The notes beneath the pieces were generated by a model. The model was not told the DNA's origin and searched no databases. It was given only the letters and a program-made list of their open reading frames with translations. Positions 1 through 10,325 of a stretch of DNA of 10,325 nucleotides are shown here, in pieces. This stretch comes from Azolla caroliniana (Eukaryota; Plantae; Polypodiophyta): NCBI GenBank assembly GCA_043228905.1, contig JBHGNT010001282.1, positions 1-10,325 on the forward strand. The letters run 5' to 3'. Within the stretch, counting starts at the first letter, position 1; each line of letters begins with the position of its first letter. The translations under genes were made by a program, and so were the position numbers.

Positions 1-719
1 AAATTGTTGATCAGCTTGCTCGGCTCGATCATTGTAGGCATCGTCCTCCACGATTGTGGATTCTCCACATCAGTCTCCTCTAACCATTGTCGATGCTTAT
101 CAAGACGGCTACAAGTCTTCTTCACCGCCGCCCAATCCGCTACCAAGCCATTTGGTTGCATTTCAACCTCCAAAAGGCTGCCCAATTCTCGCCGTTCTTT
201 CATATCCACCACCTTCAAGAACAGCAGGACTTTATCTCTTTCGAGAACTCGTTGATCCGCACTCAGAAGTCAGTTGTACTTTTGGTCAAATTCCGCATAT
301 ACTCCTGCCGCACACAGATTATTCCCTTTCTTCTCGATCCAAATCATTAGTGTATGTCGAGTCATCCTTGACGCATCTTCAAGCATGTATTCAGCAAGAA
401 CCACATTTTCGAACTCTGCCCAAGTTGTGTGCTCGTTTTAGATCTCCATTATGCGCTCACAGATCCCTGGTTCCACCACACGTTTAAAGCTAGAAATTTG
501 TTTGAGATCATTGACATCCCTCTGCTACATCTCGTTTAGATAGGTAGCAAGCAGATCTGTGATATTCTTGCCACCAAACCATCCAACTATCTCCACCGTT
601 CAATCAACATCTTTGTCGATTAAAGCCTCCCGATCTCTCACCTTCAGCATGTATTCCACGACGAACACCATGCCTTTCGTTAATTCCTCTCCTTGAGTTC
701 CGCTTGTCGAAGCCATCAT
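1..719 (-). pseudogene. gag: Retrotransposon gag (capsid-like), disabled by nonsense mutations
   Basis: One frame from ATG 719: MMASTSGTQGEELTKGMVFVVEYMLKVRDREALIDKDVD*TVEIVGWFGGKNITDLLATYLNEM*QRDVNDLKQISSFKRVVEPGICERIMEI*NEHTTWAEFENVVLAEYMLEDASRMTRHTLMIWIEKKGNNLCAAGVYAEFDQKYN*LLSADQRVLERDKVLLFLKVVDMKERRELG... It carries gag-type motifs (F.G.NIT..L, TW.EF...L..Y, VY.EF, K.LLFL). Stops at 600-602, 525-527, 438-440 and 270-272 are each explainable by one C->T change; no frameshift. Confidence 0.8.
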
Positions 720-747
720 CGCACTTGATATCCTCCTACCGCCTTGT

Positions 748-1167: not shown

Positions 1168-1800
1168 GAACAAGTGACTGAAGAGTATTCGATTACATCT
1201 TCATACAAGGAGTTATCGGAAAATTTTATTGCTTTTAAGGATTGGGTTAGTATTACATATTTGAAATTTTCCATTCTAGTTTATTACATATGTGAACAAT
1301 GTATGAGTTACTTCTTTTGTTGTTTCACATAGAAACCATGTCATAGCAAGAAGCCTGGAGAAGTCAAAGACAAACATGATTTTCCAACTTCCTTTCTTGC
1401 CCATCTTGAAAGAGCACAGAAACAAAACAATCGGTGCTTAATGAAGGCATTCGATGTGGACGATTACGGAACTTTCAAGAAGTTTAGCCACAAAAATGAT
1501 ATCACCCAAGAATTGTATTATAATGTGTACTATGGTGATGTGCCGAAGATGATCCAGAAGTTGCCAAACAAGCAGTACACGTTACTCATTGTGGATATTC
1601 CATACGATTTATATATGGTCGGATCTTCTTATGATGATTAACCATTTAGGTTCAAACAATTGGAGAAAATGGTGAAGGATTTCGCAAAAGTTGACCAAAA
1701 CGAGCTTGTGGAGAATAGTGGTCTTTCATAGCATGGACCAAAGATATTCTATGGCTCAAACGTTGAGATCTCGTTGTCATGGTGTAGAGAACCTTGTTTG
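1168..1800 (+). pseudogene. Decayed spliced gene fragment resembling a beta-class N6-adenine/N4-cytosine DNA methyltransferase (N6_N4_Mtase-like N-terminal half)
   Basis: Exon ~1168-1245 (EQVTEEYSITSSYKELSENFIAFKDW), phase-0 intron 1246-1332 (GTTAGT...TTTTGTTGTTTCACATAG), exon 1333-1800 ending TG|GTAAG. Translation: KPCHSKKPGEVKDKHDFPTSFLAHLERAQKQNNRCLMKAFDVDDYGTFKKFSHKNDITQELYYNVYYGDVPKMIQKLPNKQYTLLIVDIPYDLYMVGSSYDD*PFRFKQLEKMVKDFAK/(+1 frameshift near 1690)LTKTSLWRIVVFHSMDQRYSMAQTLRSRCHGVENLVW. This parallels the consensus I.GD...L..LP..S.DLIVTDPPY ... helix ... G.IYVFH ... N.IIW. DIPY is at 1594-1605. Confidence 0.6.

Positions 1801-5116: not shown

Positions 5117-5167
<51 letters not shown>
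5117..5167. repeat. (TACATA)8 microsatellite
   Basis: Eight perfect TACATA units at 5117-5164 plus TAC, followed by degenerate TA/CA-rich sequence to about 5225. Confidence 0.95.
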
Positions 5168-5221
5168 TACATATACATGATATATATTATGTATATGTGT
5201 ATGTATACATACATTATTACA

Positions 5222-5248
5222 TATATAAACCCCTCTCTCTCTCTCTCT
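5222..5248 (+). promoter_or_regulatory. Probable core promoter of the GLR gene: TATA box and (CT)8 Y-patch
   Basis: TATATAAA at 5222-5229 is followed by (CT)8 at 5233-5248 and a pyrimidine-rich leader, about 90 nt upstream of ATG 5319. This is a typical plant core-promoter layout. Confidence 0.55.
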
Positions 5249-5318
5249 CCCTCGTCCCTTCCACCCCCTCAGTTCACACTTGGCCACCCGTTGGGGCCGT
5301 CATTCTCATCCCCCGACC

Positions 5319-5645
5319 ATGTATGCTCCAATGGGCCTCATCACGGCTCTCCTAGTGCTTGCCATCTTCTTCTCCCCTGAATTTCCGACTGCGCACGCGA
5401 CCAATTCCTCCAACTTGAAGATCCTTGTTCCTCTCAAACTTGGATTCGAGGAGTTTGTGAGTTGGCAATCGTCTGAGATACCGGTCACGCCCAACTCCGT
5501 CGTCAATTTCTCCGGCTTCGCCATCAATGTGTTTCAAGAATGCGTTGAGAAGCTTAATTATCGTATTAATTACACATTAATTGGCTATGGAGATGGCCTT
5601 GTAGACCCAACCTATAATGACCTTGTGCAAAAGCTTGTCTCTAAG
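5319..5645 (+). CDS. GLR: Glutamate receptor-like (GLR/iGluR-family) ion channel, exon 1: signal peptide + start of S1 ligand-binding segment
   Basis: ACCATG at 5319 starts MYAPMGLITALLVLAIFFSPEFPTAHA|TNSSNLKILVPLKLGFEEFVSW...FSGFAINVFQECVEKLNYRINYTLIGYGDGLVDPTYNDLVQKLVSK. This matches plant GLR S1 motifs (LRIGVP.K.GF.EFV; GFCIDVF; P.Y.DLV). 109 codons, ending AAG|GTATTA (phase 0). Confidence 0.9.
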
Positions 5646-6686
5646 GTATTACATTAGCTATACCTAATTTTTTTTTGTTTTTGTTGTAGTAATGACACTT
5701 AATTTTCGTAAAAATCAATCGCTTAAGGTTAATCATTTATGATAAATGGACCTCGATAATGTGTTTATATCTATGTTAGCAAGAATTTCTACGTGCACAT
5801 TAATGATAGAAAAGACATAAGGGATTGTGGCAATCCTCAAGTAGGATGTCATGGCTAGACAGGGAGAAACTAATATCTAAGTCCATAAAATACCTCGAGA
5901 TTATATGTAACAAATTACTAAGATTGTCCTAATATCATACCCCTTACCATGGAATCTCGTTCAAAGATTGACATAGGCACTAACAAATTGTTGATAATTC
6001 CATCTATAATTGAGGGTTTGATCCAGTGGACAAGAGTTTGAACTCCAATACATATGAGTGTTTTAAAAGTAATTTTTAGCATCGCTAAAATTATTTTGAC
6101 ATTCCATGATATACTATTCAAGCATCGGTTGGCCAAGGTAATGTTTTCTAGTTATTCTTGTAAGATCTATTTGATTAATTGTGCAAGATCTATATTTCTT
6201 AGCGCCAAATAAGTCAAATATGAGAGGCTTATTCGGTGAATAATTGGTTTTGTTGTATTGTATGGAAAAGCTACTCTCAAGAGAGTACGATGTGCTCACT
6301 TCGAAGAGATAAAGTAACTTTGTTAGTAATCCTTGTGTAGAATGGTCCAAGGAATAGTTTGAGCAAATTTAATACCAAAGATTGAAATTTTTACTCAAAG
6401 AAATACATGTGCAATCAAGTACAAGTGTATGGAGTAAGAGCCAAAAATGTATGCAGTAGAATCGCTTCGTATGGAGAGGGAGTTGTCCGATTTTGACATA
6501 CGGAAGCCTATTTGATGAAGATATTGCGTTATCTTTGAATGCCAAGCACACGGTGCTTTGAATTTCCACTGCTTGATAATGATATTTACATAGCATACAA
6601 CAAGTTGGATTAATAAGGTTTTAATTAATTCTGTGCTCCAGTAATACGTTCGTATTGGTTTTCACTATATGCATGCATGGTCATAG
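5646..6686 (+). other. GLR intron 1 (1041 nt, GT-AG, phase 0)
   Basis: Donor AAG|GTATTA at 5646 and acceptor TCATAG|GAC at 6685-6686 join VSK|DVDGVVADL in frame. Angiosperm GLRs have an intron at the equivalent position, just before xFDAVVGD. Confidence 0.85.
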
Positions 6687-6970
6687 GACGTAGATGGAGT
6701 AGTTGCTGATTTGACGATCACTAGTGACCGGTTACAGTTAGTAGACTTTACCCAGCCATATATAGGATCAAGTCTTCAAATGATCGCGCCACTTCAATCT
6801 AGGAGTAATATTTCATTCTGGACATTCATTTCCCCTTTCTCTTGGCAACTTTGGATAACCATTGGAGCATTATTTATTGTCACAATGTCTTTGATCTTCT
6901 TCGTGGAATGGTGTGGCCGAGCTGATGAACACGATGGAGGTTGGGGAAAGGCCTTCTCAAAATCGTTTTG
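6687..6970 (+). CDS. GLR: GLR exon 2: end of S1, M1 transmembrane helix, start of the M2 pore region
   Basis: DVDGVVADLTITSDRLQLVDFTQPYIGSSLQMIAPLQSRSNISFWTFISPFSWQLWITIGALFIVTMSLIFFVEWCGRADEHDGGWGKAFSKSFW carries the hallmark D.TI...R...VDFTQPY and W.F..PF...LW motifs. It ends TG|GTAAG (phase 2, split Trp), the conserved plant GLR intron site. Later exons are not in the window. Confidence 0.93.
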
Positions 6971-7252
6971 GTAAGAACTCATGATCACCTCATATCATAT
7001 TGTTTGTATCAAACTAGATTTTTCAACACCTCATATTAGTGTGTAATTTAAACGCACACAACATATGAATGCGAATATTTAATTGTATATATTGATAATA
7101 AATATGTTAAATTCGAGTCATAATATGGCATTGATGGCAATTGACAAGGTGCGGAACAACTTTCAATAGCAGGTACTATGATATTGACAAGGGATACAAG
7201 ACTCTCTTAGGTGGAGGGTTTGTCGAGGTAGTGTTTATAGCAAAAAGAAGAC

Positions 7253-7430
7253 AACCCAAACTTGAAGATAGATGTCTAGGGTTTACGGTTTAGGAACATG
7301 GAATTGGACGAGGTCCGGGCTGGGAGTACATGTGTAATATCGCGCTTTATATCAAAATGAAGTTAACCCAAACCCAAAGATAGATGTCTAGGTTTCTCAA
7401 GTAACCCTCACCTAATAGGGTTTAGGGTTT
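7253..7430. repeat. Short imperfect direct repeat plus telomere-like/telo-box motifs
   Basis: AACCCAAACTTGAAGATAGATGTCTAGGGTTT (7253-7284) and AACCCAAACCCAAAGATAGATGTCTAGGTTT (7365-7395) share the exact 16-mer AAGATAGATGTCTAGG. TAGGGTTTAGGGTTT lies at 7416-7430. Confidence 0.7.
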
Positions 7431-7945
7431 CATAGTAACTGCTACCCAATTGCTCTAGATTGTTTTCCAGGAGCTATTTAGACAACAATCTTACGATTGA
7501 TTGCTAGCCATAGTTGGTTGGGAGATTAGTTACAAGCATAAACTGAAAGACATGAAGGGGATAGATATCATGAGGAATGTAGGAAGACAATGTGTTGTTG
7601 AAGAAGAGAAAAATCTAGAGACGTGAACCATGGGTAGAGTTCATCATAACAATAAATATATTAGGAAAATAAATATATCAAGCAGCTAAAATTACAAGTT
7701 AGTTACCTTCGACGGAGAGTTACTTGGGTGTTGAAGGACTATAGACTATGCCCTCACTAGTGTGCATTATATAATTGAGTACCTAACTAACATACTACGC
7801 CTTGCCTCATCTCATCTTTCAAGATCCTTGTCCCGTTAGGAGCATCTACCGTTCAACAAAGCTTTTGCTTGAGTAAATGACAATAGAATAGTATGCTTGC
7901 CCAAATCTTCAACTACAAACGTGTTGGTCTTCGATTACTGAGATT

Positions 7946-8444
7946 CGTGAGGAAATCCGATTATGAAATGCACAATAATGCGGGAACAAAAAAATAGGAA
8001 ATGCACAGAGTACACAGTTTTACGTGGAAGTCCTAAACAGGGAAAACCACGGGAATTGAGATCCACTATACAATGGAGAATACAAAGGAGACAATATAAA
8101 ACACTCTCTCTGCACAGAGTCTTGGCGTCACTCTCACTCTCACTCTTCACTCTGTTCCTACTACTCTTACTTCTATTATTATACTAATAATAATAGAAAA
8201 TAATCAACCGATTGATTGAATAGTCAATTCAACTAGTCGACTCTAGTGTCGACTGTCCAGTTCGCCCGACTAATCGGCCTTGTCGTTGACAGTCCGGTCG
8301 GCTCGACTAGTCGGTCTAGTTTTCGACTTGGATCCTCTGTTGTCGACTCTCCTTGACATCGACTGTTGTCTCCCGGCCCGACCAGTCAGCTACTCCTTGT
8401 CTTCGACTATCGGCTCCTCCCATAGGAGGGACATATCCCTAACA
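7946..8444 (-). repeat. 3' LTR of the copia element (about 500 bp)
   Basis: Minus strand starts TGTTAGGGATATG at 8444, 2 nt after the PPT. It has a CGAC-rich U3, an AT-rich TATA-like segment near 8170-8195, a GA-rich R region and a T-rich U5. The distal end is only resolved to 7922-7948. Confidence 0.8.
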
Positions 8445-10325
8445 AACTCCCCCTTCACTCCTATGGGTGGAGTTAGTTAGCCCTGTCCTTTGTCGACTTA
8501 CTTTGAGTTTGTCCATCGATAGGTTCTTCGTGAGCATGTCGGATCCATTTTAGTCAGTATGGGTCTTCACAAGAGTAAACTCTCCATCTTCCACTCTCTC
8601 CTGTAACCAGTGATACCTTCTCTATATGTGCTTGGTTCAGGAGTGGTACATAGCGTTCTTGGCTAGATGTATGGGGTTGTGGCTATCACAGTGAAGCAAG
8701 GACTCCCTTTGCTTCATTCCTAACTCACTGATCAGCTCTTTTCCGGCCTCTACCGCTGCCATATACTCTGCCTCTATGGTCAACAAGGCCACATATTTTT
8801 TGAAGTTGTGACTGCCATGACATTACTCCCCATGCATAAGTCATCATGTACCCTGAAGTGGATGAACTTGAGTTTGTGTCCCCCAATGTTTCCAAGTCGG
8901 TAAACCCTTCAACCATACCTTAGGCATACCCCAAAGGTGCCTTTCAAGTACTTGAGTATTTATTTAACAGTTGCCCAATGTTCTCTTCCAAGATTACTCC
9001 TATATCGGCTTATTGTCCCCATAGCAAATGCTATGTATGGTCTCGTACAAACCATAGCATACATTAAACTGCCGACGGCTAAGGCATATCGTACTTTCCT
9101 CATCTCAACCTTTTCTTTCTCACCCCTTAGGCATTGCTTAACATTCAACTTAGTTGGCCGGTAACATAGAGCCGACTAGCTTTGCTTCCGAGATGTTGAA
9201 TCTTTCTAGGATCTTTGTCACATACTTCTCTTGTGACAACCACAACACTTTCTTAGTTCTGTCCCAAACTATGTGCATCCCTAAAATCTGTTTAGCGGGT
9301 CCAAGATCTTTTATTGCAAACAACTTGCCTAGAGCTTTCTTTTAGCTCAAGATCCTCTTCATGTCTTGTCCGACTCTCAAGATGTCATCCACATATAATA
9401 AGAGAATTAAGAAGTAACCTTCATCATACCTCTTTACATACACATAGTGATCAACTTGTGTTTTCTGGAACCTATATTCCAACATGAAGGACTCGAACTT
9501 CTTATAACATTGGCATGGAGCTTGTTTTGAACCATACAAGATTTTCTTTAGTTGACATAGTAGGTTCTCTTTCTCTTTCTTCGCAAAGACTTTGGGCTAA
9601 TGTGGGACATCACCTTTCAATGGTATTGAGGGAGACCTATTGATCAAATAAACAGTTGTGTACATCGCCTCAGTCCAGTACATTTTCGCCAGCATAGCAT
9701 GCAACATCATGCTCCTTACTCTTTCCATTATCATCTGATTCATCCTCTTTGTAAGCTTGTTTATTGCTGGGTTCTTTGGCACTGTGTATTCGATTCGAAT
9801 ACTTTGGTCCTTGCAGTATTCTTTGAAATGCCCTCTATATTCGCCACTGTTGTCGGTTCGGACCACCTTCAAGTTCTGACTTGACTCTCTTTTTGCCCTT
9901 GCTTGGTACTCCTTGAAGAACGACAATACTTGATCCTTCAATTTTAGTACTAAAGTCCACAATTTTCGACTGTAGTCATCGATGAACGTGACGAAGTACT
10001 GTCCGCCTCGATGTGATGGAGCCTCTACATAGCACACGTTGGTGTGCACTAGTTCCAAGAGCACTTCTCTTCTTGGTGGTCTTGAGTAGAATGCTGCTCT
10101 ATTCTACTTTCCGACTAAGCAGCCGACACACTTCTCCAAGTGTACTCCTTTCACTTCCGGGAGAAGTTCCTGGTCAGCTAGTAGATGCATTCCCTTCTAA
10201 CTCATATGGTCTAGCCTCTTATGCCATAACTCTCCACTCGAGTTGGCTACCAAGTTCACTTTCGACTTGTACAGTCGGGCATGCATCATATACAATGTGC
10301 CCTCTTTTTGTGCTCGGGCCACTAT
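8439..10325 (-). pseudogene. pol: Copia pol (GAG-pre-integrase HHCC, integrase core, RT, RNase H), disabled
   Basis: HHCC: ELWHKRLDHMS*KG...CVGCLVGK (~10110-10230). Integrase: LVHTNVC...YFVTFIDDYSRKLW...RTDNSGEY...NKLTKRMN (9597-10064). RT: LYGSKQAP...LLYVDDIL (YVDD at 9384-9395) and AVGSLMYAMVCTRP. RNase H: GFTD...STSGY...EAEY...HCDS...TKHI...SDMLTK. Multiple stops, frameshifts and deletions; two DDE residues are altered (D->N, E->K). Confidence 0.92.
8447..8461 (-). other. Polypurine tract of the copia element
   Basis: Minus strand GGAGTGAAGGGGGAG, then TT, then the LTR TG. Confidence 0.85.

Follow-up and report, generated by a model that had tools for sequence, protein, structure and literature searches.

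In canonical plant GLRs an amino-terminal domain (ATD), amounting to about 45% of the protein (PMC11479355), lies ahead of S1. A gene on contig JBHGNT010001282.1 of Azolla caroliniana seems to lack this domain, its S1 following a hydrophobic leader almost directly. Does the locus encode a two-layer GLR that arose by loss of the ATD, or is it a damaged copy of a longer gene? We addressed this question in the whole 10,325-nt stretch analysed (hereafter, the window), with the help of related loci (L001-L011), contigs of sequencing run X1, protein searches, phylogeny and structural modelling.

Architecture of the window gene

The sequence-only reading had proposed the order TATA box, CT tract, ATG, leader, five residues, S1. 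All of these elements can be read directly in the sequence:

5222-5229, plus strand: TATA-box-like TATATAAA, read from the sequence; its TAA doubles as the nearest in-frame stop upstream
5230-5318, plus strand: CT tract and probable 5' UTR, with the element GTTCACAC... kept in paralogues (X1 contig and L002-L006 alignments)
5319-5645, plus strand: exon 1 coding sequence, ATG at 5319, 109 aa, stop-free
5319-5399, plus strand: predicted signal peptide, residues 1-27, hydrophobic LITALLVLAIFF, ending in A-H-A (residues 25-27)
5400-5414, plus strand: five-residue linker TNSSN, at the place of the usual ~400-aa ATD and WPG..PRGW linker
5415-5645, plus strand: first part of S1, beginning LKILVPLKLGFEEFV, with K40 at the position of AtGLR3.3 Arg11, and Y99
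5646-6686, plus strand: intron 1, GT..AG, 1041 nt, phase 0; joint present in X1 contigs, donor the same in L001-L011
6687-6970, plus strand: exon 2, with the end of S1 (D117, T119, R124), pre-M1, M1 (about 6837-6911) and the M1-M2 loop; stop-free
6971-10325, plus strand: intron 2, extending beyond the end of the window
7922-10325, minus strand: degenerate copia element in intron 2 (3' LTR 7922-8444, polypurine tract 8445-8455, broken RT and integrase)

Direct reading of exon 1 shows the hydrophobic leader fused to S1 with a gap of five residues. Its designation as a signal peptide is a prediction from an 11-residue Kyte-Doolittle maximum of 3.1 together with the A-x-A motif. Elements resembling TATATAAA, namely TATATAAAC/ATGTAAAAC, lie upstream of paralogues L002-L006.

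Residues 32-106 align with the beginning of the AtGLR3.3 LBD (E 2e-6) and residues 490-561 of AtGLR3.4, and exon 2 matches residues 565-635 of the latter (E 6e-12). The Asp/Thr/Arg set that coordinates the amino acid is present in exon 2 (D117, T119 and R124, within ADLTITSDR); retention of this motif and the absence of stops from both exons had been claimed from the start, and both were seen. Lys40 occupies the plant-specific Arg11 position, as it does in several canonical sequences from seed-free plants. Both introns had also been said to sit at conserved GLR positions. This holds for intron 1, which falls at residue 545/546 of P0022, identical to the canonical control loci; intron 2 is only close to its position in these controls. 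By its nearest relatives and intron positions, the gene is a plant GLR, of the iGluR superfamily.

A profile built from 21 canonical ATDs matched none of 12 sequences (the window and L001-L011) as against 8 of 8 canonical loci (L012-L019), the upstream sequence searched being 5.3 kb in the window, 4.6 kb in L001, 2.3 kb in L003 and about 0.2-1 kb in the other 9 of the 11 related loci. Searches by tblastn with two full-length GLRs agreed, yielding no ATD in the window or the related loci; most canonical controls showed ATD and S1 in a single reading frame. An in-frame stop lies 10 codons or fewer before the Met in 5 of the 11 related loci. A domain search had been expected to return a ligand-binding or channel domain and no ANF_receptor. 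With Pfam, the latter expectation was borne out; on the former count exon 1 gave no family and exon 2 only sub-cutoff matches to Lig_chan-Glu_bd and SBP_bac_3. PF01094 was also absent from the fern relatives P0021 and P0054, where LBD and Lig_chan are present. As judged from its sequence, the window gene is not a canonical three-layer GLR, in which an ATD (PF01094) stands before S1.

Several repeats occur around the gene. A 268-bp TG...CA element at 770-1037 consists of one long inverted repeat, whose 89-nt arms are 94% complementary and extend to about 130 nt; it lies beside a stretch resembling a primer site and a disrupted gypsy gag (1-720, minus strand) and is possibly a palindromic LTR. 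Upstream of position 1149, L001 (1-477) no longer follows the window, so the gypsy remnant is not common to both at that flank. A broken reading frame with a DIPY motif and no Pfam match spans 1333-1760 (plus strand). Just upstream of the TATA box, a TACATA array (5117-5187) differs in length between the window and L001, and TTTAGGG-like repeats with a 50-nt direct repeat are found in intron 2 (7234-7440).

Transcripts and the downstream half

Run X1 is one of two runs listed; its RNA status is presumed, it belongs to a single study, and its contigs inform neither on the start site nor on the level of expression. Five X1 contigs were aligned to the window, on which no contig from run X2 could be placed. 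One X1 contig, without a mismatch to the window across 5516-5643 and 6685-6972, joins 5645 to 6687; a second skips the same 1041-nt intron, with 35 differences in 416 letters. Both spliced contigs diverge from the genome after 6972, continuing W-L-T-A-M, which implies that a third exon exists. Altogether, at least four types of ATD-less paralogue are represented in this run.

The event that the sequence-only reading had named as fatal to its proposal, splicing of upstream ATD exons into an acceptor near 5415, was not seen. A third X1 contig is colinear over 5263-5545, spanning the ATG as well as 5415, and its 5 differences in 283 letters make it an allele or close paralogue of the window gene. 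By this contig, an acceptor at 5415 is ruled out for that allele or close paralogue; no weight is given to the absence of contigs upstream of 5263. For a further candidate acceptor, the AG at 5271-5272, the contig coverage falls short of a 31-letter bridge. This acceptor was judged unlikely: the AG is missing in L002-L006, and an ATD joined upstream would turn the leader into an internal membrane helix.

No exon for M2, M3, S2 or M4 was detected with a C-terminal profile in the remaining 3.3 kb of the window. L004 likewise shows no third exon within 2.8 kb, which suggests that a long intron 2 is a trait of the family. The copia element in this intron is common to the window and L001.

The M2-M3 exon of the family can be seen in L006 (550-1275), a pseudogene among the paralogues, without exon 2 and with a stop immediately behind the M3 motif; the GSF of S2 is also present there. 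A 520-letter X1 contig aligns from the first base of this M2-M3 exon, with 48 letters ahead of the exon, and has Ser where L006 has the stop. If the contigs overlap by the usual 30 letters, we infer a 32-nt micro-exon between exon 2 and the M2-M3 exon. Such a micro-exon would keep the frame and would equal the 10 residues present at that place in P0021. Neither the window nor L004 yielded the micro-exon motif, and the three stretches of intron 2 that would formally qualify as 32-nt exons were discarded, as they do not read W-L-T. At the third M3 residue, L006 has Ile and the X1 contig something other than Thr (the single T>C place of the run lies elsewhere). Thr occupies this position in 129 of 132 motif matches; three other plant proteins likewise have Ile or Leu there.

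Relatives, phylogeny and selection

A phmmer search over 1.84 billion representatives returned 57 matches. The best 11 of these are leader-S1 exons, 46-80% identical to the query, with an equivalent hydrophobic leader and the same donor at the end. A recognisable S1 start was found in 86 of 187 proteins examined. A hydrophobic leader (Kyte-Doolittle 2.36-3.79) lies within the 45 residues ahead of S1 in 28 of the 86 and is absent from the other 58 (1.55 or less), and among these leaderless proteins 51 carry the canonical WPG/PRGW linker. Complete ATD-less proteins of 438-658 aa occur in Pteridium and two Adiantum species:

P0021, Pteridium aquilinum: transcript ORF of 463 aa, complete, ATD-less
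P0054, P0070, P0074 and P0089, Adiantum nelumboides: complete, ATD-less
P0080, Adiantum capillus-veneris: complete, ATD-less

Two intron-less ORFs in Logan contigs are also complete and ATD-less. One subgroup keeps a Cys-containing spacer of 30-45 residues. An ATD-less fern subgroup comprising P0072, P0074, P0076 (whose model start is doubtful), P0080 and P0089 is characterized by long insertions, rich in Pro and Ser, in the cytoplasmic loop between M1 and M2. The nearest named row, P0026, is a leaderless partial model of 183 aa. Longer proteins were sought with exon 1 by word seeding, giving 0 of 422 candidates, a weak result since P0014 and P0021 were missed as well; the exon 2 search gave 1 of 66.

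In a tree of the S1-M1 region (49 rows, 165 columns; P0051 and P0114 left out for short coverage), the window gene groups with four related loci and a further 11 rows, with support of 100/99. All nine named members among these 11 rows are ferns, the other two being unnamed. The clade was recovered with support of 100/100 in an S1-M4 tree of 41 rows, in which the window gene is partial; the outgroup does not fall on one side of a branch here, making the root unsure. Canonical GLRs from ferns, lycophytes, gymnosperms and angiosperms lie outside the ATD-less clade. The proposal of a plant-derived GLR subclass formed through ATD loss is supported, with a spliced gene, paralogues, complete relatives and a well-supported clade to its credit. 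The original framing around Physcomitrium did not survive, as all nine named clade members are ferns; no named moss protein fell into the clade among those that the searches returned. The group is likely to be a clade of ferns, on present sampling of sequences. In the trees it is a separate clade, placed outside GLR1&2, the clade of ATD-lacking angiosperm models.

ATD-less proteins from spinach and Bauhinia were placed among angiosperm GLRs. A single origin of these and the fern clade was rejected on S1-M4 (p-AU 0.0002) and not rejected on S1-M1 alone (p-AU 0.08). From the tree topologies, the losses in spinach and Bauhinia were apparently independent events within angiosperms, a lineage that appears to have repeated the loss. 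The proteins in question (P0064, P0115 and P0118; 464-496 aa) have the leader directly on S1, and the spinach first exon is also found in a Logan contig.

S1 is under purifying selection: dN/dS ranges between 0.07 and 0.41 against 9 of 10 related loci, the remaining comparison being saturated. Over 7.4 kb, L001 and the window are 98.4% identical, and their exon 1 does not differ at all. M1 and the loop evolve more freely than S1 (dN/dS 0.54 against L004). Between the window and its closest RNA paralogue, 21 of the 29 listed codon changes are non-synonymous and 8 synonymous; in M1 and the following loop (6807-6941), a region picked after the fact, all 14 changes are non-synonymous (P about 0.02). 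L001 has some of the RNA paralogue's letters in this interval, suggesting gene conversion or a mixed assembly.

Proposed function and comparison with known receptors

The ten complete clade members have D-x-T..R and the S2 Glu without exception (10/10 each), the Tyr in 9 of 10 cases and SYTASL in 10 of 10; the ligand-coordinating consensus that they match is that given in PMC11479355. An AlphaFold model of P0021 (pLDDT 83.5) has AtGLR3.4 as its best match and superimposes on the AtGLR3.3 LBD with a TM score of 0.92 by target length. Its C-terminal helix (426-462) matches M4, and M2 is of the GLR type. Retention of the ligand residues and SYTASL in the ten complete members favours a functional amino-acid-gated channel over a decoy. 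On the strength of sequence and model, the product of the window gene, like its relatives in the clade, is probably a two-layer channel subunit that is gated by amino acids and permeable to calcium.

Such proteins would descend from one ancient deletion, by which an early GLR of ferns lost what lay between leader and S1, and the founder gene would then have multiplied into the clade. The leader would be cleaved after A27, and S1 and S2 would close on an amino acid via D117, T119, R124 and partners in S2. Tetramers would assemble by LBD and membrane contacts alone, either as homomers or with sister ATD-less paralogues, and the resulting channel would be free of ATD-based control (glutathione binding, partner selection). 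AMPA receptors from which the ATD has been deleted still function. As the complete fern members keep the full pore and ligand site, a self-sufficient channel seems at least as likely as a modulatory subunit in need of full-length GLRs.

One form of the latter idea takes the protein for a tuning subunit of the insect IR kind, with varied ligand specificity, able to traffic and conduct only as a heteromer with a full-length fern GLR as co-receptor. Full-length GLRs do persist in ferns (Ceratopteris P0085), four or more ATD-less paralogue types occur in a single run, and the non-Thr M3 residue and fast-evolving M1 would suit a dependent subunit. Furthermore, heteromers are held to be important for GLRs (PMC11479355), and most insect IRs have no ATD while IR8a and IR25a keep it (PMC2924276). 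Yet the complete fern members retain SYTASL and the ligand residues, the core of the latter being conserved rather than diversified, and the ATD is the very layer thought to guide partner choice (PMC3483616). We regard this form of the idea as unlikely. Equally speculative, by analogy, is the wider picture in which ferns would have assembled, out of plant components, a chemosensory system of the insect-IR kind, with an expanding ancient two-layer clade tuning a few full-length GLRs, and the changed gate residue and fast M1 setting the properties of the mixed channels.

Alternatively, the clade could be real and the window subfamily non-conducting or inhibitory, acting as a ligand sink or dominant-negative subunit after replacement of the gate Thr and drift of M1. 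The non-Thr gate position in L006 and the X1 contig and the relaxed M1 would agree with this; however, purifying selection persists on S1, the X1 contig has Ser at the L006 stop, and Ile or Leu at the M3 position recurs in three other plant proteins, all of which makes such a role quite improbable. Nor is there more reason to view the window copy as a truncated or dying duplicate, severed by the copia insertion from the exons at its 3' end: the element in intron 2, the 3.3 kb devoid of a downstream exon, the pseudogene paralogue L006, the excess of amino-acid changes between recent copies and the interpretation given to ATD-less angiosperm models (PMC4995503) could be taken that way, but a contig identical to the window copy splices from exon 2 into the next exon, the lack of a third exon within 2.8 kb in L004 makes a long intron 2 a family trait, exon 1 is identical in L001 and both exons are open.

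The preferred reading, a two-layer GLR channel subunit, has precedents in part. ATD-less plant GLR models are already known: they made up 11.03% of 881 GLRs from 45 species (Chen et al. 2016, PMC4995503), 74% of them in angiosperm GLR1&2, where they were read as removal of redundant copies, and an example from pear was not expressed. The main text of that paper does not contain the word 'fern'. Like those models, the fern proteins are plant GLRs without PF01094; unlike them, they form a conserved, spliced, multi-species clade, of which no description was found in the literature searched (a body of text that excludes most subscription papers). ATDs were found in all sugarcane GLRs (PMC9506223), and GLR numbers rise in aquatic ferns according to PMC8079949, where no domain detail accompanies the statement. 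In the portion of PMC11479355 consulted, GluR0 alone is named as ATD-less. Reviews present the ATD as an invariable component of plant GLRs, and the ATD-less models described earlier were dismissed as decay. The fern clade changes the way in which fern GLR expansions should be counted. It also offers natural test cases for what the plant ATD does (assembly, glutathione control, trafficking), and structural and recording work would find smaller targets in its proteins of about 450 residues.

Canonical plant GLRs (AtGLR3.4, PDB 7lzh; AtGLR3.3 LBD, 6r85; PpGLR1/2) resemble the window gene in S1 sequence, D-T-R residues and intron positions, and the complete fern relatives in S2, M1-M4, SYTASL and fold. 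The fern clade differs from them in lacking the ATD and the WPG..PRGW linker, in forming a separate clade of 438-658 aa proteins and, in the window subfamily, in the non-Thr M3 residue. Insect tuning IRs similarly combine an iGluR core without ATD homology and expanded paralogues beside ATD-bearing relatives; however, they keep about 200 N-terminal residues (PMC2924276), as compared to 5 to about 45 in the fern clade, which is of plant ancestry. By its best matches, which are plant GLRs, the window gene does not appear to descend from protostome IRs (the trees being free of IR sequences). GluR0 of Synechocystis has the same arrangement of signal peptide, S1, pore and S2 with no ATD, but it lacks M4 and is K+-selective (PMC11479355), whereas in the fern proteins M4 is present and a K+-filter motif absent. 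Unlike GluR0, the fern proteins would have arisen by loss from eukaryotic GLRs. Two-layer proteins with an LBD and a membrane domain that includes M4 also occur in the animal lineage, as the kainate-binding proteins of vertebrates and as AMPA receptors engineered to lack the ATD. The fern clade suggests that plants, as did insects and some vertebrates, kept two-layer glutamate receptors.
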